Assembly (NCBI GenBank): GCA_964535825.1
Contig: CAZHUC010000004.1
Location: forward strand, 6,928 to 70,927
From: an uncultured Rickettsiales bacterium
GTDB lineage: Bacteria; Pseudomonadota; Alphaproteobacteria; Rickettsiales; SXRF01
DNA: 64,000 nucleotides
Reading direction: 5' to 3'
Shown: positions 34,636 through 62,065 of the stretch, piece by piece
How the letters are laid out: every line of letters starts with the position of its first letter
Numbering within the stretch: position 1 is the first letter of the stretch
The notes under the pieces: generated by a model
Database searches by the model: none
Told to the model about the DNA's origin: nothing
Seen by the model: only the letters and a program-made list of their open reading frames with translations
Translations under genes and position numbers: made by a program

Positions 34636-35975
34636 TCCAGTCTTTCAGACATCAGAGAGGTGAAGCGGTTATGCAGGTCGGCATCATGGATGATATCACG
34701 CCATGCATGCGCAGCCTCACCATACATGGTGTAGAAATCATAAGCAGAAAGCATAGCATCCTTGGCGAGATACACCCTGCCGCCCAGTTCGGCGACACTA
34801 CGGTTCAGTATCGGAATAAAATTTTGTACGGCCGGAGTGTTAGGGAAATCCAGCGCAAGGCTATAACCCCTTTGGGAAAATGTAAGCAAGCCTTTGCCCT
34901 GCCGGTGGTACTTCAACACCGCAAGGAATGAGAATAGCTTGTGCTGGTGGATGAGCGACAGGATATCCTGTAGTGCTGCAACAACCGAGGGTGATTCAGG
35001 AATGATGCACTGATACTGGAAAAATCCCCTGCGGCCATATAACTTATTCCAGTTGCCGATGGTATCCAGTGGATGGAAAAAATTATTGAAATCCACTTTT
35101 TCCTCAAGGCGCTCCTGGCTGTATCGCTTGAAGCGAACATAGTTATATAGTTTCATCACCAAAGGATTCAGGAGGAAAGCAGGTGCGAAGACCGGCACGC
35201 TGACCTTAGGTTTGGCAGATGCATAGTCTTTTAATGTCGCGCCGCCATTGCCAGCGGCTATGTGGTTCGCTGCTTCAAATACACCGCGCCCAAGCTGTGC
35301 GCCCTTTGATGAATGATCGATCCAGCCCACCATGTAATCGGAGTTGTCGCGGAAATGTTCAAAAGCGGCGACCAGCGCTTGCAGTGAATTGACCTTATAT
35401 GTTGTGGTGGAAAGAGATGCCGATGTAATGGGCTTTAATTTGAATGTAACCTCTTCGATGATGCCGGTCATGCCCATGCCGCCGGCAGTTGCCCAGAAGA
35501 GGTCGCTGTAATGGTCTGGGGAGCATTCGATCGTTTTTCCGTCAGCCATTCTTAGCTTGATCGAAAGGACATGTTCGGCAAATTCGCCCTCACGGAAATG
35601 ATTCTTGCCGTGCACATTGCAGGCGAAGCATCCGCCAAGGGTGACATGGCGCGTACCCGGAATAACCGCAGGTATCCAGCCTTTTGGAATGGTGATATCC
35701 ATTACTTCAGCGAGGCTCACACCTGCCTGAGCTTTCAGGATGCCTTGTGTTGCATCGAATTCGATAAAATGGTTGAGCCGTGTGGTACAGACCACGCCGG
35801 AGGGTTGCAAAGACGCATCGCCATACGACCTGCCGAGGCCACGCGCGATCACAGGCTGGTTGTTTGCATCAAGGATATCTTTTATTTCACGCAGCTTTTC
35901 AGGCCGCCATGCACTGCACTCGGCAACAGGCGCATGTCCCCATCCATATAACATCTGGCGTTTAACAGGCAGCAT
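34617..35975 (-). CDS. DprE1-like FAD-dependent oxidoreductase (polyprenyl-phospho-ribose 2'-oxidase candidate)
   Basis: 452 aa. GWGHAP, ARGLGRSYGD and IPAVIPGTRHVTLGGCFACNVHGKNH parallel the recalled M. tuberculosis DprE1 motifs GWGR, ARGLGRSYGD and [25 protein letters not shown]. Confidence 0.85.
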   Translation of the reverse strand: MLPVKRQMLYGWGHAPVAECSAWRPEKLREIKDILDANNQPVIARGLGRSYGDASLQPSGVVCTTRLNHFIEFDATQGILKAQAGVSLAEVMDITIPKGWIPAVIPGTRHVTLGGCFACNVHGKNHFREGEFAEHVLSIKLRMADGKTIECSPDHYSDLFWATAGGMGMTGIIEEVTFKLKPITSASLSTTTYKVNSLQALVAAFEHFRDNSDYMVGWIDHSSKGAQLGRGVFEAANHIAAGNGGATLKDYASAKPKVSVPVFAPAFLLNPLVMKLYNYVRFKRYSQERLEEKVDFNNFFHPLDTIGNWNKLYGRRGFFQYQCIIPESPSVVAALQDILSLIHQHKLFSFLAVLKYHRQGKGLLTFSQRGYSLALDFPNTPAVQNFIPILNRSVAELGGRVYLAKDAMLSAYDFYTMYGEAAHAWRDIIHDADLHNRFTSLMSERLEWKQAS

Positions 35976-36880: not shown

Positions 36881-37366
36881 ATGCTCATCGCCGTATTTCT
36901 TATCATCGCAATGTTGCTCGTGTTGTATTTCGATATCACGCGCTACATCATACCGAACTGGCTCTGTGGGTTATTGCTGCTGCTTTACCCGATAGCTGTA
37001 TACATGGCGGCTGTGCCTGTTGATTGGCAGAAGGGGCTCATGGCGCTCGCGATCATGTTCGCCATTGGATATGTAGCTTTCGCCCGTAACTGGATGGGCG
37101 GTGGTGACGTCAAACTTCTGGTGGCTTGCAGCGTGTGGGTCGGGCTGGCCAGATTAATGGATTTTGCATTCACCGTTGCCATTCTGGGCGGGGTGCTTTC
37201 GGTTGTACTTTATCTGGTACGCAAGTTACCCCCTGTGGTGAATCGTGCACAGAAGTTGCCACGCATCATGCGTGTAGGTGAGCCGGTGCCATATGGCATT
37301 GCAATCGCCTTTGCATTCTTCCTGATGATGAAAATGGGGAATATCCCTGCACTTGCTATGCCTTAG
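36881..37366 (+). CDS. cpaA: Prepilin peptidase (A24 family, CpaA-type)
   Basis: 161 aa, polytopic. DITRYIIPN and GGGDVKLL carry the two catalytic Asp of A24 peptidases. Confidence 0.8.
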   Translation: MLIAVFLIIAMLLVLYFDITRYIIPNWLCGLLLLLYPIAVYMAAVPVDWQKGLMALAIMFAIGYVAFARNWMGGGDVKLLVACSVWVGLARLMDFAFTVAILGGVLSVVLYLVRKLPPVVNRAQKLPRIMRVGEPVPYGIAIAFAFFLMMKMGNIPALAMP

Positions 37367-40542: not shown

Positions 40543-40617
40543 GGCTCGGTAGCTCAGTGGTAGAGCAGGGGAATCATAATCCCTTGGTCGGGGGTTCAAA
40601 TCCCTCCCGAGCCACCA
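40543..40617 (+). tRNA. tRNA-Met (anticodon CAU), elongator type. A lysidine-modified tRNA-Ile2 cannot be excluded.
   Basis: 75-nt cloverleaf. Acceptor GGCTCGG/CCGAGCC, D-arm GCTC/GAGC, anticodon stem GGGGA/TCCCT with loop AUCAUAA, T-arm GGGGG-TTCAAAT-CCCTC, and an encoded CCA. The G1-C72 pair argues against an initiator. Confidence 0.9.
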
Positions 40618-40710
40618 CATACTTTCTTGCAATCTTTCCTCCTATAGTGTGAACTGTGTCGGGGCATGAATCTTGCTCCGCAGGGAATATAATAAAATAG
40701 TGGGAGTCAT

Positions 40711-41841
40711 ATGCAGGGTATTGTTCCGGTTCTCAAGCCAAAACTACCTGAAATTTCAGCTATTTTACCGTATCTTAAGCAGATCGATGAGAATCGCTGG
40801 TATGGTAATAATGGCCCGCTGGTCGTCGCTTTTGAGAAGCGAGTCGCTGATCTGCTGAAAGCAACGGCCGAAAGCGTCCTGATGGTGGCCAACGGCACGC
40901 TGGGCCTCACCGTAGCGCTACAGGCACTGGAAGTAAAACGTGGCGGCCTGTGTATCATGCCATCATGGACATTTACCGCAACACCCGCAGCGGCACTGGC
41001 CGCCGGGCTTGAGCCTTGCTTCATTGATGTGGACAAAGAAACGCAAGTCATCTCCGCAGAGAGCGTAAAAAAACATATCAAAGCGCTGAAGAAGCCAGTG
41101 AGTGCTGTGATGCCTGTATCTGCCTTTGGCGCGCCAATCGATGTTGCGCAGTGGGATAGATTCACAGAAGAAACCGGTATTCCTGTAGTGATCGACGCCG
41201 CAGCTGCGTTTGATAGCTTCATGAGCGGTGCAATGAAAATGGGTCGCACACCGGTGATGCTGAGTCTGCATGCTACGAAGATCTGCGGTATCGGCGAAGG
41301 CGGGCTGATGCTCACCAAGAGTGCTGACGTTGCATTCCGCCTGCGCCGCATCATCAATTTCGGGTTTGAGAATGACCGTCTGTCACATCGCATCGCCATT
41401 AATGCTAAGCCGAGTGAGTATAATGCGGCAGTAGCTATGGCCGTGCTGGATGAGTGGAAAGATATTCGCGCCGCCTGGGCAAAGGTGCAGTTGCGCTACA
41501 GAGAAAAGCTTGAAGCACACGGTATCGCCTGCTGGGTAAAACCTGATTGGGTAACGAGCACCAGTAACATAATTGTGCCTGAGCAAGCCGTGGCGCTGGC
41601 GCAACATCTGAAAGAGCAGGGCATTGACACACGTCGCTGGTGGGAAACAGGTTGTCATGTGCATCCGGCCTATCGCTCCTGCATGGTGCATGATGAATTA
41701 CCTAACACGCAGTGGCTCGGGCAATCGGTGCTTGGCATTCCTTCTGCCATGGACCTGAGTGAAGATACCCAGGATAGGGTATATGAGGCAGTGGTAAGCG
41801 GGCTTAAATCAATTAAGTCAGATTCCAGAAAATATGGCTAA
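40711..41841 (+). CDS. DegT/DnrJ/EryC1/StrS family sugar aminotransferase
   Basis: 376 aa with ANGTLGLTVAL and the PLP-lysine context LSLHATKICGIGEGG. Confidence 0.88.
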   Translation: MQGIVPVLKPKLPEISAILPYLKQIDENRWYGNNGPLVVAFEKRVADLLKATAESVLMVANGTLGLTVALQALEVKRGGLCIMPSWTFTATPAAALAAGLEPCFIDVDKETQVISAESVKKHIKALKKPVSAVMPVSAFGAPIDVAQWDRFTEETGIPVVIDAAAAFDSFMSGAMKMGRTPVMLSLHATKICGIGEGGLMLTKSADVAFRLRRIINFGFENDRLSHRIAINAKPSEYNAAVAMAVLDEWKDIRAAWAKVQLRYREKLEAHGIACWVKPDWVTSTSNIIVPEQAVALAQHLKEQGIDTRRWWETGCHVHPAYRSCMVHDELPNTQWLGQSVLGIPSAMDLSEDTQDRVYEAVVSGLKSIKSDSRKYG

Positions 41842-44056
41842 TCCATCTACATCTCCTGCCAATGTCGATCGTAATGATCCATGTCCATGCGGCAGTGGTA
41901 AGAAATTTAAAAAGTGCTGCATCGATAAGGTGGCTGCAGCATCCACCGCGCCATCACTGAATATCGGCCTTACCCTGCAACAAGCGGCAGCTGCACTCAA
42001 TACCGGGCGCTTGGATATTGCAGAAATTGCGCTTGCCAATGTGCTGCACGTACAACCTAATAATACGGATGCATTGAATTTTGCTGCGTATGTCTGTTTC
42101 CAACGCAAGCAATATGATACCGCGGCCGGGTATATCAACAAAGCAATAAGCCTGAATAACAAGAACGGATTATATTTCTTCACCGCCGCATTGATCTCCA
42201 AGGCATGCAAGCGGTTTGATGAAATGGAAGTGCTATTGCTCAAAGCGCTTGCGCTTAAGCCAGCGGGCTATATTTCACAGATATACGCTAATCTTGGCGA
42301 CTGCATGCATGAAAAACGTAACATGCCTGCGGCAATCAGTTATTACACAAAGGCGATCGAGGCGGATGCAAAGAACGCTAAAGCCTATTTCTATCGTGGT
42401 ATGGCGCGTTATGAATTTGAGGGAGCAAACTCAACCTATGAAATTGATGCCAATAAAGGCATCGAGCTTTCACAAAAGTCATCGGATATGCTGTGCAAAT
42501 TAGCAACGATCTATAACAGTGAGCAGGATTTCGAGAAAGCACATCTGCTGTTGCAAGATGCGGTATCCGTTAGTCCGGATAATGAAGAGGCGTCATTCTT
42601 CCATGCGCTGACCTTTTATGAGCGTGGGGATGTTGAAACTGCAAAAAATATCTTTGCAAAAGTATTGACCAGACACCCGCTGAGTATTCGCACACAGGTG
42701 AGTGATGCTTTCCTGCTGCCGGTCATCGTTCATGATAATAATGAGATAGAATCATGGCGTACGCGTTTGATGTCGCGGGTGCAACAGCTGATCGATAATA
42801 AGGTCATTTTGCATGAACCTGAGCGTCAGGGACTGTATCTGCCCTTTTATCAAGGGTATCATGGGCGTGATAATAAGGTGATGATGCAGAAATTGTCGGA
42901 ATTCTTCCTGATATGCTGTCCATCGGTGCAATACACCGCACCACATTGCACCAAACCGCGAGATAAAAGTAAAAAGATACGTATTGGGTTCGTTTCTGAA
43001 TATTTCCATTCAAAACTGCTTACACAATTCTTTGGTCCGCTCATAGAGGGATTGGCAGCGGATGCTGAATGCGAAGTGGTGATATTTGCTTCCTCAGCGC
43101 GTGAGAATGACAAGGTAAAAACCTTATCAGATCAGGTTAAGAAATATGTGGTGCTGCCACTTAGCCTGCCATCCATGCAGCAGACTATTGCGCATGAGGA
43201 GATAGATATCTTGATCTATCTGGATATTGGTATGCGCCTGAATACCTATTTATTGGCACTGGCGCGGCTTGCACCGGTACAGGCGGTGATGGGTGGACAC
43301 CCACTCACCACCGGTATCCCGAACATGGATTATTTCTTCACTACAGGTAGCATGGAGGCGGAAGGCTCGCACACGCATTACACAGAAAAGCTGCTGGCTG
43401 GTGCAGATTTGCTTGCAGTGATCAAGAAGGAATATGTTGCACCGGTTGATATGACGCGCGCAGAGCTTGGGTTACCAACAGAGGATGTGCGCTTATATAC
43501 CTGTCCAGTGCTGCTATTCAAACTGCATCCGGATATGGATATGGTGTTCGAGGGTATACTCAATAAAGATCCCAAGGCGCGCATTATCTTGTTCGATAAT
43601 GGCAAGATCATCTGGCGTGAGTTGCTGGAGAAGCGTTTTGTGGATTCTATGGGCAAAGAACTTGCATCGCGCATCATATTTGTTCCATTTGCGGCAAAAG
43701 ATAAGTTCATGCATACGATGCGCGCCATGGATGCGATATTTGATACATTGCATTTCTCCTTCGGTACAACGGCATTCCTGTTGCTTGGCTCAGAAGTGCC
43801 ATTCGTGACCAAACCCGGGGAATTTTTGCGTGGCCGTGGTGCTTACGGGGTATTCAAAATGATGGGTATGCTCCATATGTCAGCAGATACCATAGATGGG
43901 TATGTTGATCTTATTGTTAAACTGGCAAATGACAAGGCGTTCTATAAGCAGGCGCAGGATGATATCCGCAAACAAAACCATCTCATCTTTGATGATTATG
44001 GGCCTGTCGATGAATTCCGTACGCATCTGAAACGTATCGCCTCCGAGATCGCATGA
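41834..44056 (+). CDS. SEC-C motif + TPR repeats + GT41 (SPINDLY/OGT-like) glycosyltransferase
   Basis: 740 aa. N-terminal NDPCPCGSGKKFKKCC (SecA-type zinc motif), about 300 aa of TPR-like repeats, and a C-terminal half with RIGFVSEYFHSKLL and LFKLHPDMDMVFEGILNKDPKARIILF, typical of bacterial GT41. Overlaps the degT-like gene by 8 nt. Confidence 0.75.
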   Translation: MANPSTSPANVDRNDPCPCGSGKKFKKCCIDKVAAASTAPSLNIGLTLQQAAAALNTGRLDIAEIALANVLHVQPNNTDALNFAAYVCFQRKQYDTAAGYINKAISLNNKNGLYFFTAALISKACKRFDEMEVLLLKALALKPAGYISQIYANLGDCMHEKRNMPAAISYYTKAIEADAKNAKAYFYRGMARYEFEGANSTYEIDANKGIELSQKSSDMLCKLATIYNSEQDFEKAHLLLQDAVSVSPDNEEASFFHALTFYERGDVETAKNIFAKVLTRHPLSIRTQVSDAFLLPVIVHDNNEIESWRTRLMSRVQQLIDNKVILHEPERQGLYLPFYQGYHGRDNKVMMQKLSEFFLICCPSVQYTAPHCTKPRDKSKKIRIGFVSEYFHSKLLTQFFGPLIEGLAADAECEVVIFASSARENDKVKTLSDQVKKYVVLPLSLPSMQQTIAHEEIDILIYLDIGMRLNTYLLALARLAPVQAVMGGHPLTTGIPNMDYFFTTGSMEAEGSHTHYTEKLLAGADLLAVIKKEYVAPVDMTRAELGLPTEDVRLYTCPVLLFKLHPDMDMVFEGILNKDPKARIILFDNGKIIWRELLEKRFVDSMGKELASRIIFVPFAAKDKFMHTMRAMDAIFDTLHFSFGTTAFLLLGSEVPFVTKPGEFLRGRGAYGVFKMMGMLHMSADTIDGYVDLIVKLANDKAFYKQAQDDIRKQNHLIFDDYGPVDEFRTHLKRIASEIA

Positions 44057-44946
44057 CGAGCCACCCGTACGCCACTGAGACGTTTGCGAATTCGCTTTCG
44101 CATTGGGGGCAGGCATGGCGAGTGGATGCCTGGAATTGTTATGTTATTAAGCGGCCAATTGCTGACGAGGCATTTGATGCTGCTGGTGTATATCCGATCA
44201 CACCTTTAGAGCCAAACATAGATATTACCGCAGGACTTTCCCAGCTGCGGGATGCTGGCTTTGTTTCGATTGTGTTAGTGTTTGATGATTTTCACAGGCC
44301 AGATCTTGTGGAATTAAAAAAGCATTTTGATGCCGTGAATGATTTTAAACCACATTATGTATATCGCCCCGATAAGGGTAAGCTCGATTATGACAGTCAC
44401 CACCGTCGTGCTGTAAAGACTGCATATAAACATGTGCGGACCGATATTATTGCGCTCAGTGACGGCCTTGATGAATGGGCACGGCTTTATGATGCACTAA
44501 CAGCAACGCTCAAATTAGAAGGTCTGCATGCGTTCCCGCATGAACATCATCAAGCCATTGCCAGTATGGAGGGTGTGATCGCTGTTGGCGCATGGCTAGA
44601 TAAAGAACTGGTTTCCTGCCATGTATGGGTGGATGATGGACAATATATGCACAGTCATCTCGTGGCCTCTAATGAGAAGGGTTATGAGTTCAGGGCTGCA
44701 TACGCAGTGAATGATACCTCCATACAGTATTTTGCTAATAGAAAACTGCTGAATTTCGGCGGCGGGGCAGGGAATATAGTGGGCAGTGACGATGGCCTTG
44801 CGCGCTTTAAGAAAGGTTTCTCAAATGATGTTGCAGGTTCGTATATCTGCGGTGTCATTCTGGACAAGGATAAATACCAGCAGTTGGTGGATGCAAGAGC
44901 TCTGTCTCAGCCAACAAACTTCTTCCCTGCTTATAGAGCACCGTAA
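44053..44946 (+). CDS. FemAB-like / GNAT (Acetyltransf_6-type) acyl- or aminoacyl-transferase
   Basis: 297 aa. C-terminal NFGGGAGNIVGSDDGLARFKKGFSN resembles FemAB-family/BioF2-like GNAT proteins. ATGA overlap with the GT41 gene. Confidence 0.55.
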   Translation: MTSHPYATETFANSLSHWGQAWRVDAWNCYVIKRPIADEAFDAAGVYPITPLEPNIDITAGLSQLRDAGFVSIVLVFDDFHRPDLVELKKHFDAVNDFKPHYVYRPDKGKLDYDSHHRRAVKTAYKHVRTDIIALSDGLDEWARLYDALTATLKLEGLHAFPHEHHQAIASMEGVIAVGAWLDKELVSCHVWVDDGQYMHSHLVASNEKGYEFRAAYAVNDTSIQYFANRKLLNFGGGAGNIVGSDDGLARFKKGFSNDVAGSYICGVILDKDKYQQLVDARALSQPTNFFPAYRAP

Positions 44947-44951
44947 GTCTG

Positions 44952-45875
44952 TTATTTCCAGACTGCGTAGCCAAAGCCCTTTGCGCCAAAATCATTCCCA
45001 TTATAGAACATATATCTCCCACCGGGGGTATCTATGATATTGGGATATGCCACCATTTGTGAATCCCATCCTTCCGAGCTCACTGGAATGCCAGCCTTAC
45101 TGTCATCGCGACGCCATTTCTTGCCATCGGTTGATGATGCATAGCCGATACGGTAACTGCCAGTGCCGCCACGGAAATCGTGGCTGCCGCGATAGCTGAA
45201 CCACATATAATATGTTCCATCTTCGAAGAATACGCTGGGGCGTGTGGTGGCTTCACCTTCTGCAGCACCCGGTATACAGCAGATATTCGGGCGTTGCCAA
45301 TCCAGCCCATTATCGGAGTGGGCATAATAGATATAATAAAGTGGCTCATATTTTTCGCCGGTCTTTACCCAATCGACACCCGATCCATACCACATTTCCC
45401 ATTTATCGCCACGCTTCACAATAGAAGGCGACATGGAGGAAAAAGGTTCACCGCGGGTGATAGAAAGCACAGGCCCTGCATAGGGACGCTCAAATGTTTT
45501 GCCGCCATCCTGACTAATGGCAAGGCCTACCGCGTTCAGATATGGCACGGTCTGGCCGCGCTGCCAGCCGGTTGTGTATAACCATACTTCGTTGCCCACA
45601 TGCAGCACGGCTGCCGGCATGATACCGAACTCATCAAATGTACCGGGTTTGCCCAGATCGAGTATCGGATTCTTATGCACATACAGGACTTTTCTGGGGT
45701 CATGAATATCGACATCCACAAATGTGACAAGGCTGGTCTGTTGTTCAGGCCGTACTGTGATATATACACGGATACGATCCTCCATCAGCAAGGCAGTCGG
45801 CACTTGCGCATATGCTTTCATCCACGGGGATTCCAGTGAAGGCCCGTAAATAAACCCGCGTTTTTCCCATGCCAT
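44952..45875 (-). CDS. Hypothetical protein, predicted beta-propeller (GH32/43/130-like fold)
   Basis: 307 aa with repeated W/Y/G-rich strand motifs (WLYTTGW, WEMWYGSG, YYMWFSY, YMFYNGND). The fold assignment is tentative. Confidence 0.45.
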   Translation of the reverse strand: MAWEKRGFIYGPSLESPWMKAYAQVPTALLMEDRIRVYITVRPEQQTSLVTFVDVDIHDPRKVLYVHKNPILDLGKPGTFDEFGIMPAAVLHVGNEVWLYTTGWQRGQTVPYLNAVGLAISQDGGKTFERPYAGPVLSITRGEPFSSMSPSIVKRGDKWEMWYGSGVDWVKTGEKYEPLYYIYYAHSDNGLDWQRPNICCIPGAAEGEATTRPSVFFEDGTYYMWFSYRGSHDFRGGTGSYRIGYASSTDGKKWRRDDSKAGIPVSSEGWDSQMVAYPNIIDTPGGRYMFYNGNDFGAKGFGYAVWK

Positions 45876-45927
45876 ATTTTTTCCTTAAACTGTCGACTTT
45901 GTGTGCAGATTATTTTATAAACCTAAT

Positions 45928-46728
45928 ATGGGAGCTGTAAAGAACACTTCTCAGGGAGACCTAAATCTCCTACTCCCCGAATATGATCTGCCAACCTATG
46001 GAGGCGAGCGGTGCGAATATTTTGTGTGTTCCACGCCGCGTACCGGTAGCTCATTACTGGGGGACTTATTTTTTCGTACTGGGGTGTTAGGCGTACCGTA
46101 CGAGTACCTGAATCCTGTGCATATAAACACCCTGGTAGACCGTTTTGGCCTGAAGAGAAACTCGGCTGGTGCTGTTGATGCAGATGTTTATTTAGAGCGC
46201 TTGAAATCATGCCGTACCGGCAAGAACGGTGTATTGGGTATCAAAAGCCATTTCAATCATGCAGCGCCATTCTTTCGTAGCAGGAAATTCTTGTCGTGGT
46301 TTCTCACTTTGAAACATATCTATATTACGCGTCAGGATCTGCTGGGGCAGGCCATATCATATTCACGCGCTTTGCAAAGTGATGCATGGTCGATCAATTC
46401 TCAGATCAAAAAAGAACCTGTTTATGATTTTAACAATATCATGCAGTGCCTTGATGGCATCATCAGTGAGAACAGTAACTGGCATAAGAATTTTGCAGCC
46501 TTTGGCCTGAAGCCTTTATACATCACCTATGAAGAGCTTGTTCGTGATCCTGTGGAGGCCAGTCAGCGTATCTCCAAGTTCCTGAAGCCTGATGGTAGCC
46601 TTAACTTTACACTGGATCTGGATAATTCCAGCCTGCGCAAACAAAGCGGCGGCCAGAGTAAAGAGTGGAGAGAGCGTTTTGTATCTGACGTCTACAAAAT
46701 GAAGGGCTTATCGGGAGACAGTAAGTAA
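45928..46728 (+). CDS. Stf0-type sulfotransferase
   Basis: YFVCSTPRTGSSLLGDLFFRTGVLGVPYEYLNP matches the PAPS-binding loop region of the Stf0 family. The start is ATG 45928 or GTG 45901. Confidence 0.7.
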   Translation: MGAVKNTSQGDLNLLLPEYDLPTYGGERCEYFVCSTPRTGSSLLGDLFFRTGVLGVPYEYLNPVHINTLVDRFGLKRNSAGAVDADVYLERLKSCRTGKNGVLGIKSHFNHAAPFFRSRKFLSWFLTLKHIYITRQDLLGQAISYSRALQSDAWSINSQIKKEPVYDFNNIMQCLDGIISENSNWHKNFAAFGLKPLYITYEELVRDPVEASQRISKFLKPDGSLNFTLDLDNSSLRKQSGGQSKEWRERFVSDVYKMKGLSGDSK

Positions 46729-47370
46729 TCACTTCTGGTATAGATAGATACCGGTGTGGTAGTTGTTGTGCCAGCCAGTTGTTTCCCCAACCTTCTTAAA
46801 ACCAGCTAATTCTACGTCGGATTCATACACAGGATTATTGTATACCAGATAGCAGGCTTTGCTCGCATTTGTTATGTGTGTGAGCATTTGTGTCAGTGTT
46901 TCAACTCCGAACGGGTCACAGATGTAGATGATAGAATGCTCTGCATAATTATTGAAAACGCGCGCGTTCTCCTTGATAATTTCTGCGCCGATACCAAGTT
47001 TTTGCAGGTTCTTGCTTGCAATGGCTGCAAGATTTTCATCCAGTTCAATGCCGACGATACCCTGGCAGGGTAAATACTTTGCAGCCATTATGAGAACTTT
47101 TCCCTTGCCGCAGCCAACATCATAAAATGTAAATTTATCCGTCTGCGCGATCGATCTCAGTAAGTTGAAGCATTTGATGATCTCTTGCGTAAATGAAGCC
47201 TGGTAATGCTTCATATCCGAATCGGTTTCAGTATATTCAGAGAGCGGACGCCATGTTTCAGTATCAACGCCGTTGAGTATATCGAACAGCGTTGTTTCCC
47301 GGAAATGTGTCCATACACGTTTGAAGCCATGTGCTTTGTAAAGATTTTTATAGCTACTCCAGCTAGTCAT
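46729..47370 (-). CDS. Class I SAM-dependent methyltransferase
   Basis: 213 aa with motif I FYDVGCGKGKVL and an acidic post-I residue (GIELDE). Last gene of the carrier-SDR-MTase operon (1-nt overlap). Confidence 0.7.
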   Translation of the reverse strand: MTSWSSYKNLYKAHGFKRVWTHFRETTLFDILNGVDTETWRPLSEYTETDSDMKHYQASFTQEIIKCFNLLRSIAQTDKFTFYDVGCGKGKVLIMAAKYLPCQGIVGIELDENLAAIASKNLQKLGIGAEIIKENARVFNNYAEHSIIYICDPFGVETLTQMLTHITNASKACYLVYNNPVYESDVELAGFKKVGETTGWHNNYHTGIYLYQK

Positions 47371-48122
47371 CAGACCCTCAATCCGCCATGCACTTCCAGC
47401 ACAGTACCATTTACATAATGATTATTAATGGCGAACATGCAGGCATCAATGATGCTGTCGGGATTGCCTAGCATCTTCATCGGGATGCGGCTGGTGATAT
47501 CTTTAAGCTGTGCTTCAGATACTGCGGCATGGGTGGAGGGGGTATCCATATAGCCTGGGGCAATAGCCACACTGCGGATACCAAAACCACCAAGTTCTTT
47601 TGCCCATACTTGTGTGAGGGCCTCGATGCCTGCCTTGCTGGCAGAATAAGCACTCTGGCCGGCATTGCCTTTAGCCGCTACCGAGCTGATATTGATGATC
47701 ACGCCCTGTTTGCGTGCTTTAGCCATTCTGCGTGCCACGAACTGCGATACATAGAAAGCAGAGGAAAGATTGGTGTTGATACAACGCATCCAGTCATCTG
47801 CGTTGCGCTCCAGAGATGAGTCATCCTTTTCCAGAATATTCACCAGTGGTGCGCTATGTAATATGCCGGCATTGTTGATAAGCACATCAACGGTCGGATG
47901 GTCGGCATATACTGATTCAAGGCAGCTATTCACTTTGCGGGCATCCGTAAGATCGCAGGTGACGCCGTGAAAGTTCTTTTGCGCCATGGCTTTTAGTTTG
48001 TCCGTATTCACATCAAGGCCAATGACCGATGCTGCGCCTTCTTCAAGCATGGCTTGTACCAGCCTTTTGCCTAATTCACCGGCTGCACCTGTAATGAGTA
48101 TGGTCTTTCCTTGGACGGTCAT
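47370..48122 (-). CDS. Short-chain dehydrogenase/reductase (FabG-like)
   Basis: 250 aa with ILITGAAGELG, NNAG and YSASKAG. ATGA overlap with the carrier-protein gene. Confidence 0.85.
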   Translation of the reverse strand: MTVQGKTILITGAAGELGKRLVQAMLEEGAASVIGLDVNTDKLKAMAQKNFHGVTCDLTDARKVNSCLESVYADHPTVDVLINNAGILHSAPLVNILEKDDSSLERNADDWMRCINTNLSSAFYVSQFVARRMAKARKQGVIINISSVAAKGNAGQSAYSASKAGIEALTQVWAKELGGFGIRSVAIAPGYMDTPSTHAAVSEAQLKDITSRIPMKMLGNPDSIIDACMFAINNHYVNGTVLEVHGGLRV

Positions 48123-48343
48123 AGGCGATGCCTGTGTAAAATGGTTTCAATAGCTTTGACCGACACCATATCAGCGATCTCGTCGCCTGTCAGTTCGATA
48201 CCAAGCTCTTTCTCGATAGCCACGATGATCTCGATATGTTTAAGCGAGTCCCATTCCGGCGTGTTTTCCATAGAGGTGCTGGCGCTTACTGAGGCTTCAG
48301 GCAGCTTTAAGATGTCGGCGATCAATTTATGTATTGTATTCAT
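48119..48343 (-). CDS. Acyl/peptidyl carrier protein
   Basis: 74 aa. EWDSLKHIEIIVAIEKELGIEL carries the DSL phosphopantetheine-attachment serine. Confidence 0.8.
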   Translation of the reverse strand: MNTIHKLIADILKLPEASVSASTSMENTPEWDSLKHIEIIVAIEKELGIELTGDEIADMVSVKAIETILHRHRL

Positions 48344-48372
48344 ACGCTATTTATTCCAAATTTCAGGGCACT

Positions 48373-49893
48373 ATGGCAACAGCTATCTTTAATATGGGGC
48401 TGCGCTTTAAAGAAATAGCGCAGTTGCATCCTGATAATACCGCACTCCGTATGGAAAGCGGCGAAGCTGTTACCTATCGTGAATTAGATGTTCATAGCGA
48501 CCATGTGGCGGCGTTGCTGGTGTCAAAAAAACTTGGAAGCGCGCGCCCATTGGCCATCTTTGCCGATAAATCGGTATGGGCATATGCTTCCATGCTCGGT
48601 GCGCTGAAGGCCGGTGTGCCATATGTGGTGCTTGATATGGAAAGTCCTGCCGAGCGGCTGGATAAGATACTGGATAGGTGCAAGCCCGGGCTGATCATCA
48701 GTGCAGCCGATGATTTTACATGGAAAGATGCGGAGATATACAATTTCAGCCAGCTTGATGGCCTAAAGGATGCACTGCCTGTTGAACATATCGCACAGGT
48801 TGCACCTGCTACACCGGCTTACCTGATGTTCACCTCCGGCTCTACCGGTTTTCCCAAGGGCGTTACCATCTCGCATGCCAGCATGCTCAATTTCTGCCAT
48901 TGGGCACGAGATACATTCTCCATTACCCCGCAGGACAGATTGTCGGGCGTGAATCCGCTTTATTTTGATAATTCTGTATTTGATTTTACGGCATCACTCT
49001 TCAACGGCGCGTGCCTGATGCCCATTGGCCGCAGCACACTGAAGCAGGCCAAGAAGCTGGTCGAGCAGCTTAGCGATTGCACCCTATGGTTCTCTGTGCC
49101 TTCCATGCTTATTTACCTGATGACGATGAAAGCACTCACCAAAGAAAGCTGGCCTGCCATGCGCGCCATTGTTTTCGGCGGGGAAGGCTATGCCAAGACC
49201 GAGCTCATGAAGCTCCACAAGATGTTTGGTAAGCAGGCAACGCTCTGGAATGTGTATGGGCCAACTGAATGTACCTGCATCTGTTCTGCTTATGCCGTGT
49301 CTGAAAAAGATTTTGCAGATATGGACATGCTCGCCCCGCTTGGCTTCCTTGCCAAGGAGTTCGATGGGTTGGTACTAAATGAAGGAGGAAAGCCGGTCAA
49401 GGATGGTGAGATAGGCGAGTTGCTGCTGTGTGGCTCGCAGGTGGCGATCGGGTATTATAATGATGAGGAGCGTACCAAGGCATCATTCCTGGTGAATCCT
49501 GTCACTCCTGCTTCTGGCCAGATGTGTTACCGCACGGGGGATCTCGTGCTGCGTGACCCACAAACCGGTTACCTGCATTTCAAAGGTCGCAAGGATAACC
49601 AGATCAAGCATATGGGTTATCGCATTGAGCTGGAGGAGATCGAGGCGGCATTGGCCGGGTTTTCCGAGTTGTCGCAAGGAGCAGTGGTGTATCACAGGAA
49701 GAGCGCTACGGCCGGGCGTATCATGGCGTTCGTGACGCTGGCGCATGACGTGGCAGCACAAGACATAAAAAACCGTTTGCGCAGTAAGCTGCCGTCTTAC
49801 ATGATACCGGATGAAGTGATCATTATGGATGCATTGCCTAAGAACGCGAATGGTAAAGTAGACCGTAAGGCGTTGCTGGCAGGATTGGAATAA
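48373..49893 (+). CDS. Stand-alone NRPS-type (DltA-like) amino-acid adenylation enzyme
   Basis: Core motifs are LMFTSGSTGFPKGV (A3), FDNSVFD (A4, with the Asp that binds an alpha-amino group), NVYGPTECT (A5), YRTGDL (A7), GRKDNQIKHMGYRIELEEIE (A8), LPSYMIP (A9) and NGKVDRKAL (A10). The start is ATG 48373 or 48334. Confidence 0.85.
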   Translation: MATAIFNMGLRFKEIAQLHPDNTALRMESGEAVTYRELDVHSDHVAALLVSKKLGSARPLAIFADKSVWAYASMLGALKAGVPYVVLDMESPAERLDKILDRCKPGLIISAADDFTWKDAEIYNFSQLDGLKDALPVEHIAQVAPATPAYLMFTSGSTGFPKGVTISHASMLNFCHWARDTFSITPQDRLSGVNPLYFDNSVFDFTASLFNGACLMPIGRSTLKQAKKLVEQLSDCTLWFSVPSMLIYLMTMKALTKESWPAMRAIVFGGEGYAKTELMKLHKMFGKQATLWNVYGPTECTCICSAYAVSEKDFADMDMLAPLGFLAKEFDGLVLNEGGKPVKDGEIGELLLCGSQVAIGYYNDEERTKASFLVNPVTPASGQMCYRTGDLVLRDPQTGYLHFKGRKDNQIKHMGYRIELEEIEAALAGFSELSQGAVVYHRKSATAGRIMAFVTLAHDVAAQDIKNRLRSKLPSYMIPDEVIIMDALPKNANGKVDRKALLAGLE

Positions 49894-49894
49894 T

Positions 49895-50569
49895 ATGAAG
49901 AAACTGGTGATATTCGGCATTGGCAAGATCGGGCAGGTGGTGATGCACCATTTTGCTACCGACAGCGATTATACCATCGCAGGGTTTGCGGTGGATAAGC
50001 AATACATACCACAAGGCGGTATGTTCGAGGGGCTTCCGGTCGTTGCATTCGATGAAGTAGAAAAACATTTTCCTCCACAGGCGCATGATATGTTCGTGGC
50101 GGTGGGATATCAGCAGTTGAATGGCCTGCGCGCAGCACGTTGCGCCGCAGCTCGCAAAAAAGGCTACATACTTCCTAATTACATCAGCTCTGCGAACCGG
50201 CATATCAAAAGCCCGATGGGGGATAATAATTTCATTATGTCCGGTGAGCCTCTGCAGCCGCGCACCAAGATAGGCAGCGGTTGTTTTATCTGGACGAATG
50301 CCATCATCGGCCATCATTCACATGTGGGCGATTATTGCTGGATCACCTCTAATGTCACCATCGGTGGTAATTGTCGCATTGGTGATAATTGCTTCTTAGG
50401 GCTGGGTGCTACCATCGGTCATGAAATAAGCATTGGTGCGTGCTGTCTTATCGGCGCGGGTGCGCTCATCACAAAAGATGCCCCGGAGGGTGGTGTGTAT
50501 ATCGAAGCTGAGACACAACGCTTCCGCCTGAACAGTGAACAGTTCCTCAAAATGAATACGCTTAAATAG
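49895..50569 (+). CDS. NeuD/PglD-type left-handed beta-helix sugar N-acyltransferase
   Basis: 224 aa. N-terminal KLVIFGIGKIGQVV Rossmann-like domain followed by hexapeptide repeats (IGSGCFIW..IIGHHSHVGDYCWI..VTIGGNCRIGDNCFLG). Confidence 0.8.
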   Translation: MKKLVIFGIGKIGQVVMHHFATDSDYTIAGFAVDKQYIPQGGMFEGLPVVAFDEVEKHFPPQAHDMFVAVGYQQLNGLRAARCAAARKKGYILPNYISSANRHIKSPMGDNNFIMSGEPLQPRTKIGSGCFIWTNAIIGHHSHVGDYCWITSNVTIGGNCRIGDNCFLGLGATIGHEISIGACCLIGAGALITKDAPEGGVYIEAETQRFRLNSEQFLKMNTLK

Positions 50570-50576
50570 GTGATCC

Positions 50577-51584
50577 ATGAAAAAAGAATTAGCTGATATC
50601 TATCGCTGCCCGGCCACCGGTGAAAAAGTAAAACTTGAGGTCGGCAAGGAGCAGGGCGGGGAGGTGCTGGAAGGCACATTCACCGCTGGCAGCAATCGTT
50701 ATCCCATAAAGTCTGGTGTGCCTGATTTTACCTATCCGTTCATGCTGGAGCAGAGCGATGCCGAAGCACGCCGTTACTACGACGAAAAGGCCGATGAGTA
50801 CGATGAATATCTGCCGCTTACGTTCGAAACGTTCAAGGTAGATGAAACGGCAGTGCGCAACAGCATGATCGATGACCTGTGCCTGAGGCCAGATTCAAAG
50901 GTGCTGGAAATTGGTGCTGGCAGCGGTCGTGATTCAGAGCTGATACTCAAGCGGCTGGGTAAAGACGGCCAGCTTTTCATGCAGGATATATCATCGGGTA
51001 TCTTTGATAAGGCGGTGCAAAAACTAAAAGCTGCAACGCCTGCTCCGGCATTCTTCATTTCCAATGGCAGTTACCTGCCGTTCCCCGATAAGTATTTTGA
51101 TGCCACCTATCATTTTGGTGGGCTCAACACCTTCGCGGATATTGCGCGTGCTTTCAAGGAAGCGGTACGTGTCACCAAGGTGGGTGGCAAGATCGTGATG
51201 GGTGATGAAAGCATGCCTCTCTGGCTGCGTGAGACCGAGTTCGGCAAGGTGCTCATGAACTCCAACCCTCATTACAAATTTCAGCTGCCGCTTGAGCATA
51301 TGCCGGTGGAAGCACGCAATACGCGCTTGCGCTGGATCATCGGGGAAGTGTTCTATGTGATCGATTTTGAAGTGGGTGAGGGCACACCATATGCCGATCT
51401 GGATTTTGAGATACCAGGCCCACGCGGCGGTACACACCGCACCCGCTATTATGGCCACATGGAAGGTGTTACACCGGAAGTGAAGCGACTTGCTACCAAG
51501 GCCGCAAAGTCATCAGGCAAAAGCCTGCATGAGTGGCTGTGTGATGCCGTGAATACGGCGGCCAAAAGAGATCTTGGGCAATAA
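50577..51584 (+). CDS. Trm112-like N-terminal domain + class I SAM methyltransferase + C-terminal ribbon-helix-helix-like tail
   Basis: 335 aa. YRCPATGEKVKLE...YPIKSGVPDF (Trm112-like), VLEIGAGSGRD (motif I), and the C-terminal PEVKRLATKAAKSSGKSLHEWLCDAVNTAAKR, which resembles CopG/Arc-type RHH. Confidence 0.7.
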   Translation: MKKELADIYRCPATGEKVKLEVGKEQGGEVLEGTFTAGSNRYPIKSGVPDFTYPFMLEQSDAEARRYYDEKADEYDEYLPLTFETFKVDETAVRNSMIDDLCLRPDSKVLEIGAGSGRDSELILKRLGKDGQLFMQDISSGIFDKAVQKLKAATPAPAFFISNGSYLPFPDKYFDATYHFGGLNTFADIARAFKEAVRVTKVGGKIVMGDESMPLWLRETEFGKVLMNSNPHYKFQLPLEHMPVEARNTRLRWIIGEVFYVIDFEVGEGTPYADLDFEIPGPRGGTHRTRYYGHMEGVTPEVKRLATKAAKSSGKSLHEWLCDAVNTAAKRDLGQ

Positions 51585-51587
51585 AAA

Positions 51588-51613
51588 AACGCGCGGACCA
51601 TAGCCCGCGCGTT
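51588..51613. terminator. Bidirectional Rho-independent terminator
   Basis: aacgcgcgg (51588-51596) pairs with ccgcgcgtt (51605-51613). An A7 tract on the left gives a U-run for the minus-strand small gene. Confidence 0.75.
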
Positions 51614-51637
51614 CTTCATAACAAGAATCAAAAAAGA

Positions 51638-51841
51638 TTAGTGTTTAGCTTCTTCTTTTTTAACTTCTTTTTCAGCTTTAGCTTCGCCAGCAGCTGGAGC
51701 TACTTTAGCAGCATCTTCAGCTTTAACTTCTTCAGCTTTAACTTCTTCTTTAGCAGCTGGAGCAGCTTCTTTAGCAGCTTCGTTAGCGAAAGCAGGAGCA
51801 GCAACGAGGCCGAGAACGGCGAGGAGAGCGAGAGTTTTCAT
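51638..51841 (-). CDS. Small secreted Ala/Glu/Lys-rich low-complexity protein
   Basis: Starting at the ATG at 51841: MKTLALLAVLGLVAAPAFA signal peptide, then AKEAAPAAKEEVKAEEVKAE... Contains a perfect 2 x 15-nt tandem repeat (51716-51745) and is followed by a strong terminator. Confidence 0.55.
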   Translation of the reverse strand: MKTLALLAVLGLVAAPAFANEAAKEAAPAAKEEVKAEEVKAEDAAKVAPAAGEAKAEKEVKKEEAKH

Positions 51842-61969: not shown

Positions 61970-62065
61970 TCTGCTATCCTTTTTGCGTATTTCGATAATT
62001 GGCAATAGTATTATCTTTTTTTAAAGAGTTAGGAAGTTAAATAGCGTTAAGAATGTGTGACAGCC

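Follow-up and report, generated by a model that had tools for sequence, protein, structure and literature searches.

The viosamine island of Pseudomonas syringae combines vioA, vioB and vioT with genes for an ACP, a KAS III, a ketoreductase and a methyltransferase and, like the flagellin glycosylation island of Pseudomonas aeruginosa PAK, it leads to an N-acylated, methylated 4-amino-6-deoxy sugar on flagellin. The perosamine-tetronate genes rfbK-O of Vibrio cholerae O1 encode an ACP, an AMP-forming ligase, reductases and an acyltransferase; here, an unusual N-acyl group is built and attached to the amino sugar of an ABC-transporter-dependent O-antigen. The predicted flagellin glycosylation islands of Enterobacteriaceae contain genes for ACP, CaiC-type ligase, FabG and LuxC/LuxE, those for ACP, acyl ligase and FabG being common (PMC4875605). 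In Caulobacter crescentus and Brevundimonas subvibrioides, the flagellin O-glycosyltransferase is FlmG, a protein of 596 amino acids with a TPR domain that binds flagellins and a GT-B domain that sets the donor specificity (PMC7591256; bioRxiv 10.1101/2022.03.25.485807). With these systems we compare an 11-gene locus of an uncultured alphaproteobacterium. Most likely its product is an amino sugar that is acylated with an amino acid, methylated and, in this strain, also sulfated, and that a soluble TPR-glycosyltransferase would attach to a protein, probably flagellin.

Gene content of the locus

The locus is part of a window of 64,000 nucleotides (the whole stretch of DNA that was analysed) and lies between a tRNA-Met gene (anticodon CAT, 40543..40617, plus strand, identified by ARAGORN) and a G+C-rich hairpin terminator (51588..51618) that separates it from a convergent small gene. 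ORF check and profile searches reproduced the 11 ORFs and the families of the preliminary description, with two family calls being weak. Its claim of a strong terminator also held: a scan of positions 51580-51640 returned a hairpin with a dG of -25 kcal/mol and a z of -5.5, with a U-run on the minus strand and an A-run ahead of the hairpin on the plus strand.

The first three genes are all on the plus strand. A PLP-dependent sugar aminotransferase of the DegT/DnrJ/EryC1 family (40711..41841, 376 amino acids; PF01041, E 1.4e-61), which is far under the cut-offs of the DesI, LegC, PseC and ArnB models, overlaps by 8 nt with the gene of a soluble GT41 glycosyltransferase (41834..44056, 740 amino acids). 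The latter has a SEC-C motif (4.9e-10), TPRs and a GT-B domain (Glyco_transf_41, PF13844, 4e-18) and matches human OGT, SPINDLY, XcOGT and HMW1C in the PDB; its sequences FKLHP (K563) and GTT (T645/T646) align to YKIDP and HTT of human OGT. A further overlap of 4 nt leads into the gene of a Fem-fold/Acetyltransf_6-like acyltransferase (44053..44946, 297 amino acids). The description of this protein as FemAB-like is sub-threshold in Pfam (FemAB 20.6, threshold 24; Acetyltransf_6 17.7, threshold 22), with a weak FemX match in the PDB, but it gains from 30-31% identity (E ~1e-34) to bona fide PF13480 proteins of the related cassettes L094 and L095. From their sequence, the three genes appear to be translationally coupled, and the same applies to the ACP and SDR genes, which overlap by 4 nt.

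The convergent gene on the minus strand (44952..45875) encodes a predicted cytoplasmic protein of 307 amino acids (P307) with no Pfam match. It was modelled by AF2 as a five-bladed beta-propeller (pLDDT 94.4), in line with the beta-propeller proposed before, but it falls into no defined family: in Foldseek searches it resembles GH137, GH43, GH32 and GH130 at no more than 18% identity, with BT_0996 as best match (TM 0.75-0.77). The model would make P307 and its 1960 homologues an undefined family within the GH43/32/130/137 superfamily; P307 is a constant partner in the cassette described below. An Stf0-type PAPS sulfotransferase follows on the plus strand (45928..46728, 266 amino acids from the ATG, with an alternative GTG start at 45901; PF09037, E 2.6e-27).

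Two class-I methyltransferases are present. One (46729..47370, minus strand, 213 amino acids), a class-I SAM enzyme that weakly resembles DOT1, PrmA and lysine N-methyltransferases, is confined to the window clade and L017. The other, MT335 (50577..51584, plus strand, 335 amino acids), is of UbiE type and has an N-terminal beta-rich domain and a C-terminal RHH-like two-helix tail (AF2 pLDDT 90). Pfam matches agree with the methyltransferase part of the earlier methyltransferase-RHH call, while the RHH tail is marginal (TacA1 E 3.3e-4, at the cut-off). Several of the 760 homologues of MT335 are labelled Trm112/YbaR and its N-terminal domain, which has no Pfam match in the window protein, is possibly Trm112-like.

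The remaining four genes lie between those of the two methyltransferases. On the minus strand, a FabG-like classical SDR (47370..48122, 250 amino acids; adh_short 8.3e-47; best NCBIfam match 3-ketoacyl-ACP reductase with 210.9 bits, under the cut-off of 298) follows a stand-alone carrier protein (48119..48343, 74 amino acids; PP-binding, PF00550, 6.5e-8); the two genes adjoin in every cassette copy examined. On the plus strand, a stand-alone amino-acid adenylation enzyme of the DltA/NRPS A-domain type (48373..49893, 506 amino acids from the ATG, alternative TTG start at 48334; AMP-binding 7.2e-67; TIGR01733 336.4 bits, cut-off 317.4; PDB matches LgrA, DltA and GrsA) is followed by a left-handed beta-helix sugar N-acyltransferase of the NeuD/PglB/VioB family (49895..50569, 224 amino acids; TIGR03570 166.9, cut-off 160.8; Hexapep 1.7e-22). 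The specificity residues of the adenylation enzyme (DNFFVGVCIK) form a hydrophobic pocket with Asp235 and Lys517 kept and are almost invariant over ten cassettes (DNFF[V/I/A]GVC[I/M]K), which argues for loading of the same defined amino acid in all of them.

The gene scan of the window covered ORFs of at least 120 amino acids that were judged to be genes, apart from a few (for example 23147-23530). As had been claimed for the locus, 4,6-dehydratase, nucleotidyltransferase, Wzx/Wzy, initiating transferase and integrase are absent from these scanned ORFs; they also contain no sugar-activation gene and no exporter pair, polymerase, flippase or membrane GT beside the locus. Indirectly, this gene content supports the earlier view that we are not dealing with an O-antigen, capsule or nonulosonate cluster.

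Natural-product clusters typically contain a stand-alone A-domain and carrier protein along with a sulfotransferase and methyltransferases for tailoring, and the locus could be read as a small-molecule pathway in which NRPS-type loading, aminotransfer, methylation and sulfation yield a diffusible aminoglycoside-like or peptidyl-sugar compound. We consider this very unlikely: condensation, thioesterase and reductase release domains are missing, as are transporter, resistance and regulator genes, sugar enzymes (a NeuD/VioB N-acyltransferase and an aminotransferase) are the constant partners, and the contexts in other genomes are flagellar or polysaccharide loci.

Conservation at the chromosomal site

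Four related alphaproteobacterial MAG lineages share both the locus and its chromosomal site including tRNA-Met, with GT41 proteins that are 42-71% identical: the same locus is found in L003, L006 and L007, and L009 has it in rearranged form at that site. L017 has the locus too, without showing the chromosomal site. In the syntenic relatives, locus proteins are 67-91% identical (DegT 89-91% in L003/L006) and flank proteins 65-96%. There is a single variable slot, occupied by Stf0 in the window and by Methyltransf_24 or nothing in all relatives. Because the arrangement is conserved across many genomes, it is far beyond chance: the gene cluster is real and vertically inherited. An MCP gene adjoins the locus in L009, indicating a chemotactic lineage.

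Recent acquisition of a genomic island, inserted at tRNA-Met, is highly improbable. The tRNA at the left border, a slight GC dip to 0.43-0.47 in four locus genes and variable insertions right behind the tRNA in relatives would suit an island, but integrase genes are absent from the scanned ORFs, the Stf0/Methyltransf_24 slot is the sole difference between otherwise syntenic loci, and divergence is flank-like in four relatives, with GT41 identity down to 42%. Composition argues in the same direction: GC is 0.486 in the locus and 0.499 +/- 0.027 in the flanks (Mann-Whitney p 0.23), GC3 is 0.518 and 0.532 (p 0.28) and the codon-usage distances of locus genes are within the flank range, so that a segment described as AT-rich by eye was not statistically borne out. 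The tRNA-Met adjoins a CN_hydrolase gene in L003, L006, L007 and L009 and is part of the conserved chromosomal backbone rather than an island border. The hints of a tRNA-flanked acquired island in the preliminary description were wrong, and we rejected this reading as already contradicted by flank-like composition and by synteny of the locus, tRNA-Met and both flanks in relatives.

A portable cassette and its link to flagellin genes

ACP, SDR, adenylation enzyme, NeuD-type acyltransferase and propeller, usually together with MT335, recur as a block with 41-57% identity in betaproteobacteria, including cultured Roseateles toxinivorans (L097) and L041, both with TPR/GT41 genes; in R. toxinivorans these again include SEC-C. 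The position of the Fem-like gene is taken in relatives by a formyltransferase or GNAT. No publication describing the gene combination or the sugar-decorating cassette was found in a literature search; the combination, presented before as unfamiliar, is nevertheless not unique, as its core is a widespread portable cassette, found also in a Fibrobacterota MAG, within polysaccharide clusters of the ABC-transporter type. The same sugar cassette serving polysaccharides elsewhere does not sit easily with a protein target.

In the O-polysaccharide-type clusters L094 and L095, Acetyltransf_6, ACP, SDR, A, hexapeptide transferase, MT335, propeller (51-53% identical to P307) and DegT are accompanied by Wzm/Wzt (Wzt_C) ABC exporters and GT1/GT2/GT4 enzymes, and the propeller family is found alongside DegT-WbqC-GNAT-MT-GT on Rhizobium plasmids. 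These contexts would suit a decorated sugar destined for a polysaccharide or lipid glycoconjugate (LPS O-chain cap, capsule, EPS), with the GT41-like enzyme acting on a glycan or carrier made elsewhere instead of a protein. We regard this as distinctly unlikely: the window has the polysaccharide machinery neither among its scanned ORFs nor beside the locus, and TPR-GT41 enzymes with known function modify proteins. Moreover, L094 and L095 have no GT41 homologue, while all GT41-linked cassette copies are without exporters, an argument for GT41 taking the place of the polysaccharide deployment route.

GT41 relatives (23-32% identical) directly adjoin flagellin/FliD/FliS genes in eight loci, which are seven of the 80 loci of the genome scan plus Ferriphaselus amnicola (L013); by a rough estimate, about 1% would be expected for random genes. 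In L048 the gene order is GT41-WbqC-DegT-flagellin-FliD-FliS; in L037 four GT41-type genes, WbqC and DegT surround two flagellins, and in both loci the DegT homologues are paired with GT41 beside the flagellins. Ferriphaselus has, beside flagellar genes, two propeller paralogues, and P307 is 41% identical to a protein of this locus. The other loci are L030, L034, L058, L080 and, weakly, L077. From these sequence neighbourhoods GT41 is best read as an FlmG-like protein glycosyltransferase, and the earlier proposal that a TPR-GT41 enzyme attaches the sugar to a protein as FlmG does gains indirect support.

The acceptor of the same machinery could instead be a pilin, an adhesin or autotransporter (compare HMW1C on HMW1) or many proteins (compare OGT), which is rather unlikely. 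Flagellar genes are absent from the scanned ORFs of the window and from the visible flanks of close relatives, and most GT41/TPR homologues of the genome scan are not beside flagellar genes, both of which weigh against flagellin as target; several homologues (L010-L012) are in unrelated neighbourhoods, and GT41 enzymes modify diverse proteins, as the PDB matches OGT, SPINDLY and HMW1C illustrate. The N-terminal SEC-C zinc motif, found in only 11 of 86 homologues including the window clade, might couple the enzyme to nascent or Sec-targeted substrates, and some 3 kb upstream, at a position conserved in relatives, there is a gene for an A24 prepilin peptidase. Against this, three unrelated genes intervene between the prepilin peptidase gene and the locus, the small secreted A/E/K-rich protein encoded next door is a backbone gene product whose mature part is free of Ser and Thr, SEC-C-bearing members adjoin flagellins too (for example in Ferriphaselus), and the repeated flagellin/FliD/FliS adjacency is the only consistent acceptor-type signal of the family.

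Proposed function and comparison with described systems

On balance, we think that the locus probably encodes a chromosomal, vertically inherited, FlmG-type cytoplasmic system for protein O-glycosylation with a novel N-aminoacyl amino sugar and with flagellin as the most probable target. From gene content, families, conservation, synteny, cassette portability and the linkage of GT41 and DegT to flagellins, all directly observed, we infer the order of steps, the identities of amino acid and sugar, and the acceptor. The DegT enzyme would transaminate a nucleotide-activated keto-sugar supplied by genes elsewhere in the genome; the earlier idea of an amino sugar made elsewhere would then apply to the keto-sugar but not to the amination, as the locus has its own aminotransferase gene, translationally coupled to that of GT41. 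In parallel, the adenylation enzyme would charge the 74-amino-acid carrier protein with one defined alpha-amino acid and the FabG-like SDR would act on the carrier-bound group or, possibly, on the sugar; a hydrophobic amino-acid substrate agrees poorly with such a role. The NeuD/VioB-type acyltransferase would transfer the acyl group from the carrier protein to the sugar amine and the Fem-fold acyltransferase, for which aminoacyl-tRNA would be a hypothetical donor, may cap or extend the free amine. Methyl groups would be added by the methyltransferases and, in this strain only, sulfate from PAPS by Stf0, with the beta-propeller protein contributing a further glycan-building or sugar-modifying step. 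Finally, the TPR domain of SEC-C/TPR/GT41 would bind the acceptor protein and the GT-B domain would transfer the decorated sugar. Decoration of an amino sugar with acyl, methyl and sulfate groups, as suggested before, is indirectly supported by genes for a sugar aminotransferase, carrier-protein-dependent N-acylation, methylation and sulfation.

Aminotransferase (DegT type), N-acyltransferase (NeuD/VioB type), carrier protein, FabG-like reductase and methyltransferase are common to the locus and to the viosamine and PAK islands; in the islands, however, KAS III builds a 3-hydroxybutyryl group, whereas loading of the carrier in the locus falls to an amino-acid adenylation enzyme. To our knowledge, the transferases of these islands are not TPR-GT41 enzymes, and the islands have no beta-propeller protein, Fem-fold enzyme or sulfotransferase. 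The rfbK-O genes resemble the polysaccharide contexts L094 and L095 of the cassette, but their acyl group is a hydroxy acid instead of an amino acid and the reductases are others; we know of no GT41 enzyme, propeller protein or protein target in this system. As with DltA/DltC of the Dlt D-alanylation system, the adenylation enzyme has a small carrier protein of its own as partner, and the DltA model gives it the same 336 bits as the generic A-domain model, which is under the DltA cut-offs (476, 560). Unlike in Dlt, there is no DltB or DltD in the locus, the carrier protein gene is beside the SDR and the adenylation gene beside a sugar N-acyltransferase.

The islands of Enterobacteriaceae likewise have carrier-protein and acyl-ligase genes among formyl-, methyl- and acetyltransferases in flagellin glycosylation loci, but they lie within flagellar regions, were identified by prediction only and encode fatty-acid-type ligases instead of a TIGR01733 amino-acid adenylation enzyme; a text search of the article found no mention of TPR (PMC4875605). 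FlmG differs from the GT41 enzyme by its size (596 and 740 amino acids, respectively) and SEC-C is not described for it (PMC7591256; bioRxiv 10.1101/2022.03.25.485807). Its donors, CMP-pseudaminic and CMP-legionaminic acid, are made via pse/leg genes, whereas the locus has a DegT/A-domain/ACP/NeuD cassette, no nonulosonate genes, a DegT far under the PseC/LegC cut-offs, and no flagellar gene nearby. Going by its published description, FlmG is nevertheless alike in being soluble and alphaproteobacterial, with TPRs at the N-terminus that serve the acceptor and a GT-B domain at the C-terminus that serves the donor; both enzymes are encoded together with donor-sugar genes, and relatives of the window enzyme adjoin flagellin genes.

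The locus and its chromosomal site

Eleven close-packed ORFs follow tRNA-Met (CAT) at 40543-40617, the sole tRNA in the window, and are closed off by a G+C-rich hairpin at about 51588-51618, just as the preliminary description had placed them; the ORF coordinates also agree with the gene overlaps of 8 and 4 nucleotides that it had given. Profile searches returned nearly all of the families it had named. Softer are the 'FemAB-like' protein, which scores below threshold, the convergent propeller protein, which has no Pfam match, and the RHH call on the 335-aa methyltransferase (MT335; 50577..51584, + strand), whose C-terminal tail gives a marginal TacA1 match. That sugar-activation, export and integrase genes are lacking was borne out: none of the window ORFs scanned is a gene for sugar-nucleotide synthesis, export, an integrase or flagella, and the genes outside the locus have housekeeping functions only, the sole export-type genes outside the locus being a lone ABC-2 permease 8 kb away (59838-60608, + strand, without a neighbouring ATPase) and an ExoD gene 11 kb away. 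The locus itself has no Wzx/Wzy, Wzm/Wzt or initiating phosphoglycosyltransferase and is thus not an O-antigen or capsule cluster, as judged by export/assembly genes together with an initiating phosphoglycosyltransferase. When the locus was compared by megablast with all complete E. coli genomes, no match appeared.

The carrier-protein and adenylation genes are divergent, with start codons only 29 nucleotides apart (48343-48373); with the TTG at 48334 as start, they would overlap. Both promoters must therefore be located within coding sequence.

An AT-rich, acquired look and a hint of a tRNA-flanked island, both raised from the sequence alone, were not upheld. In GC, GC3 and codon usage, the 11 locus genes are indistinguishable from the other 51 window genes: the GC of the locus is 0.486, against 0.499 +/- 0.027 (Mann-Whitney p 0.23 for GC and 0.28 for GC3). 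The source is an uncultured alphaproteobacterium, and its relatives carry the NCBI labels Alphaproteobacteria or Rickettsiales MAG. Three of these relatives, with GT41 proteins 71, 70 and 55% identical to that of the window, have this locus in an identical setting, with N-carbamoylputrescine amidase and tRNA-Met on one side and HIT/PurB on the other; in a fourth (L009, GT41 42% identical) the locus is at the same site, inverted and rearranged. Compared with the relatives L003 and L006, locus proteins are 67-91% and flank proteins 65-96% identical. This similar divergence of locus and flanks, together with the shared site, shows the locus to be old and vertically inherited. A tRNA-associated genomic island was rejected, as the composition is not deviant, there is no integrase and the locus is present in relatives.

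One slot of the locus is variable: it holds the Stf0 gene in the window, a Methyltransf_24 enzyme in L003 and in the relative L007, and is empty in L006. This swap shows that the decoration differs between closely related lineages. Insertions in the relatives are found directly after the tRNA and not within the locus: a glutamine-synthetase-like gene in L006 (7367-8782), three small ORFs in L007 (7582-8753) and about 7 kb with MCP, porin, MauE and HMA genes in L009 (13602-20355), the glycosylation locus being unbroken in all three.

Some other window genes are worth recording. Upstream of the locus, an A24 prepilin peptidase (36881-37366, + strand) is kept in this position in the relatives. 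Three adjoining genes at 32289-35975 (- strand), for a 223-aa SDR, a protein of 544 aa and a 452-aa FAD_binding_4 oxidase, resemble the DprE2/arabinofuranosyltransferase/DprE1 set for synthesis and use of decaprenyl-phospho-arabinose; the trio is conserved in L003 and L006, and the 544-aa protein has no Pfam match in the window and a weak AftB_C match in its L003 counterpart. An ankyrin-repeat protein, of a type frequent in host-associated alphaproteobacteria, is encoded at 61163-62005 (- strand).

The encoded enzymes

In profile searches, the 740-aa protein shows a SEC-C zinc motif at the N-terminus, then TPR repeats, and a Glyco_transf_41 domain at the C-terminus. Its GT-B region scores 65.4 bits with PF13844 (gathering cut-off 25), which makes it a member of CAZy GT41/Glyco_transf_41, several TPR families match residues 48-290 in its N-terminal part, and its PDB matches are OGT (E 1.7e-29 to 1e-20), SPINDLY, XcOGT and HMW1C. 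In a HMMER alignment with human OGT, FK(563)LHP of the window protein corresponds to YKIDP and GTT(645/646) to HTT, which we take to be the donor-phosphate binding residues Lys842 and Thr921/Thr922; K563 and T646 are conserved to at least 90% in the GT41 family alignment. The enzyme shares the soluble two-domain architecture of TPR and GT-B with FlmG (PMC7591256). From 585 GT41 relatives identified in a profile-guided scan with one genome per species, the best 80 were retained, and none of the loci among these 80 is from Caulobacterales. On the Rhodocyclaceae MAG contigs L010-L012, a SEC-C/TPR/GT41 homologue with 28% identity lies between MCP and B12-binding radical SAM genes with no sugar cassette alongside; members of the GT41 family are therefore not always encoded with a donor pathway.

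The DegT/DnrJ/EryC1 aminotransferase was identified with an E-value of 1.4e-61. The stand-alone adenylation enzyme is of the NRPS type: it reaches 336.4 bits with TIGR01733 (curated cut-off 317.4) and has both Asp235, which binds the alpha-amine, and Lys517. It is not a DltA, as it stays below the cut-offs of the DltA models (318.6 versus 559.85 bits and 336.3 versus 476 bits) and DltB and DltD genes are absent from the locus and the scanned window ORFs. In each of ten cassettes compared (see below), its ten specificity positions, located by motif anchoring and presumably equivalent to those of GrsA, read DNFF[V/I/A]GVC[I/M]K. With Asp235 and Lys517 kept and the specificity residues near-constant, these enzymes probably all activate a single alpha-amino acid, and we assume that the DNFF[V/I]GVCIK pocket resembles Ile/Val-type codes.

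The acyltransferase belongs to the NeuD/PglB/VioB family (TIGR03570, 166.9 bits, curated cut-off 160.8), and profile searches further identified a carrier protein of 74 aa, a FabG-like SDR and two SAM methyltransferases. The sulfotransferase is a Stf0 member (PF09037, 96.4 bits, cut-off 22, E 2.6e-27); assignment as a trehalose-2-sulfotransferase equivalog was rejected (77.5 bits versus 400). The Fem-like protein scores below the cut-offs of FemAB (PF02388, 20.6 versus 24) and Acetyltransf_6 (PF13480, 17.7 versus 22) and has a marginal match to FemX in the PDB (E 0.19). The N-terminus of MT335 is a beta-rich domain with no Pfam match of its own; some MT335 homologues are labelled Trm112/YbaR, so this domain may be Trm112-like.

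The AlphaFold model of the convergent 307-aa protein (44952..45875, - strand) is a five-bladed beta-propeller with a pLDDT of 94.4. Its best structural neighbours are GH137, GH43, GH32 and GH130 (TM 0.6-0.77, 12-18% identity), but it is the fold alone that is shared: with an NF052550 score of 36 bits versus 450 and a best PDB sequence E-value of 0.0074, there is no significant sequence membership and we rejected assignment to any of these families. A search returned 1960 propeller homologues, typically about 50% identical.

A portable cassette

The preliminary description had proposed to look for co-occurrence of the GT41, FemAB-like and A-domain genes in other genomes. In the neighbourhoods of propeller and MT335 homologues (760 of the latter), a block of five genes recurs as a unit, encoding the carrier protein, the SDR, the adenylation enzyme, the hexapeptide acyltransferase and the propeller. 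MT335 (missing in L009 and in the betaproteobacterial MAG locus L041) usually accompanies it, as do a DegT enzyme and an Acetyltransf_6 protein. A search of plasmids with MT335 gave a single match, distant and partial. Compared with their window counterparts, adenylation enzyme, acyltransferase, SDR, methyltransferase and propeller show 41-57% identity and DegT 26-30%; the Fem-like protein is 30-31% identical to the PF13480 proteins of the homologous cassettes L094 and L095.

The surroundings of the block differ. In L094 (Fibrobacterota MAG) and L095 (metagenomic contig) it forms part of polysaccharide clusters that contain GT1/GT2/GT4 enzymes as well as Wzm/Wzt (Wzt_C) exporters and have no GT41, which indicates that the cassette also serves polysaccharides elsewhere. 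Full-length TPR/GT41 genes accompany it in L041 (one) and in Roseateles toxinivorans (L097; GCA_004362525.1, contig SNXS01000003.1, about 391-403 kb; two, both SEC-C-bearing), where the gene order is GT41-GT41-DegT-WbqC-ACP-SDR-A-hexapeptide transferase-MT335-propeller, A being the adenylation enzyme. In the Roseateles toxinivorans version, WbqC replaces the Fem-like gene of the window, and the 213-aa methyltransferase and Stf0 are absent. Accessory genes are the Fem-like protein, the 213-aa methyltransferase and MT335 in the clade of the window and in the MAG locus L017 (which has a further GNAT), WbqC, Methyltransf_24 and a formyltransferase in L009, and WbqC, Methyltransf_24/TylF-type methyltransferases and a GNAT in L041. 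WbqC directly follows the GT41 gene in L041 and in L048, a GT41 locus near flagellar genes, and is one gene farther away in L009; WbqC was considered as a diverged Fem-like protein, and direct comparison revealed no visible similarity between the sequences.

The propeller is also part of a second recurrent module, found on Rhizobium leguminosarum plasmids: on pRL4b5 (L098, 10088-16043), DegT-WbqC and two tandem propeller paralogues lie together with genes for a GNAT, a methyltransferase and a glycosyltransferase. In Ferriphaselus amnicola (L013, 4364-7485), the same run of two propellers, GNAT and methyltransferase is part of the flagellar region, upstream of the flagellins; a 318-aa neighbour considered as a Fem-like protein proved on comparison to be the second of these paralogues.

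Linkage of GT41 relatives to flagellin genes and comparison with known systems

In 7 of the 80 best loci, and additionally in Ferriphaselus amnicola, the GT41 gene lies 0.4-4 kb from a gene for flagellin, FliD or FliS; we estimate the chance of a random gene being this near a flagellin locus at about 1%. The gene order in L048 is GT41-WbqC-DegT-flagellin-FlaG-FliD-FliS, in L037 two flagellins are surrounded by four GT41-type genes, WbqC and DegT, and three Planctomycetota loci have the order flagellin-FliD-GT41; the FliD/FliS matches in L077 are weak. Most GT41/TPR homologues among the best 80 of 585 have no flagellar linkage. By guilt by association from these eight loci, flagellin is a candidate acceptor that would be bound by the TPR domain. 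The characterised precedent is Caulobacter FlmG, in which the TPR domain binds flagellins and the GT-B domain sets the donor (PMC7591256; bioRxiv 10.1101/2022.03.25.485807). FlmG systems are defined by a CMP-pseudaminic or CMP-legionaminic donor together with pse/leg genes, and here there are no homologues of a NeuB-type synthase, a CMP-transferase or PseB/G/H in the locus or the scanned window ORFs, and the DegT enzyme scores 127-135 bits with the PseC/LegC models (cut-offs 420-424). The locus, having no nonulosonate genes, is thus FlmG-like in logic but lies outside the Pse/Leg systems.

The 67-aa product of a gene beside the locus (51638-51841, - strand) has Ala/Glu/Lys-rich low-complexity sequence after its signal peptide; the GC3 of this gene is only 0.18, a strong hairpin terminator follows, and the gene adjoins the HIT gene in all relatives. 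The protein is probably abundant and periplasmic or secreted, and belongs to the backbone rather than to the locus. It was considered as acceptor and rejected: its mature part has no Ser/Thr here, and the gene stays with the HIT-gene backbone where the locus is inverted (L009).

We propose the following sequence of steps. The DegT enzyme would aminate a nucleotide-activated keto-sugar supplied from elsewhere, while the adenylation enzyme would load its amino acid onto the carrier protein. The SDR, encoded next to the carrier protein in every case, could have either the tethered group or the sugar as its substrate, and the NeuD-type enzyme would N-acylate the amino sugar. Fem-fold enzyme, methyltransferases and Stf0 may cap or decorate the product, with a further step contributed by the propeller, and the GT41 enzyme would finally move it to Ser/Thr of a protein selected by the TPR domain.

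A more far-reaching reading, which we put forward as possible rather than probable, is that the constant block, usually with MT335, constitutes an undescribed, widespread pathway to one specific N-aminoacyl amino sugar (probably branched-chain aliphatic and methylated) via carrier-protein-dependent acyl transfer. This pathway would be plugged into ABC-transporter O-polysaccharides or into SEC-C/TPR/GT41 flagellin glycosyltransferases; in this strain, Stf0 would sulfate the protein-linked glycan, and the propeller would be a new class of glycan-biosynthesis enzyme. If true, the sulfated protein-linked glycan would be the first for a bacterial flagellin.

Glycans on flagellin and other proteins influence motility, recognition by phages and predators, and immune detection. 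To our knowledge, protein glycan chemistry beyond the pseudaminic/legionaminic and viosamine systems is mostly uncharted. Here, a conserved portable sugar-decoration cassette, with about 2000 propeller and about 760 methyltransferase homologues, apparently delivers one and the same amino acid from a carrier protein to a sugar, and the propeller is always present. Through the link to SEC-C/TPR/GT41, the FlmG paradigm, with TPR choosing the protein and GT-B the sugar, would come to include donors other than nonulosonates in Alpha- and Betaproteobacteria as well as in Planctomycetota. A closely related system is carried by the cultured Roseateles toxinivorans and is therefore directly testable; the genus Roseateles is flagellated (PMC10772561). 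The system is a solid testable lead, not something categorically new.

That the gene combination is undescribed, as previously suspected, agrees with our literature text searches (cassette; WbqC; viosamine and ACP; sulfotransferase and flagellin glycosylation island), which yielded no account of such a set. The Pseudomonas viosamine and PAK glycosylation islands and the V. cholerae O1 tetronate genes are among the closest analogues. The FlmG systems also belong here, as do the islands predicted for flagellin glycosylation in Enterobacteriaceae, which contain ACP, ligase and FabG genes (PMC4875605). None of the four is known to unite an amino-acid adenylation enzyme and a propeller with a Fem-fold enzyme, a sulfotransferase and a transferase of the SEC-C/TPR/GT41 type, as the locus does.
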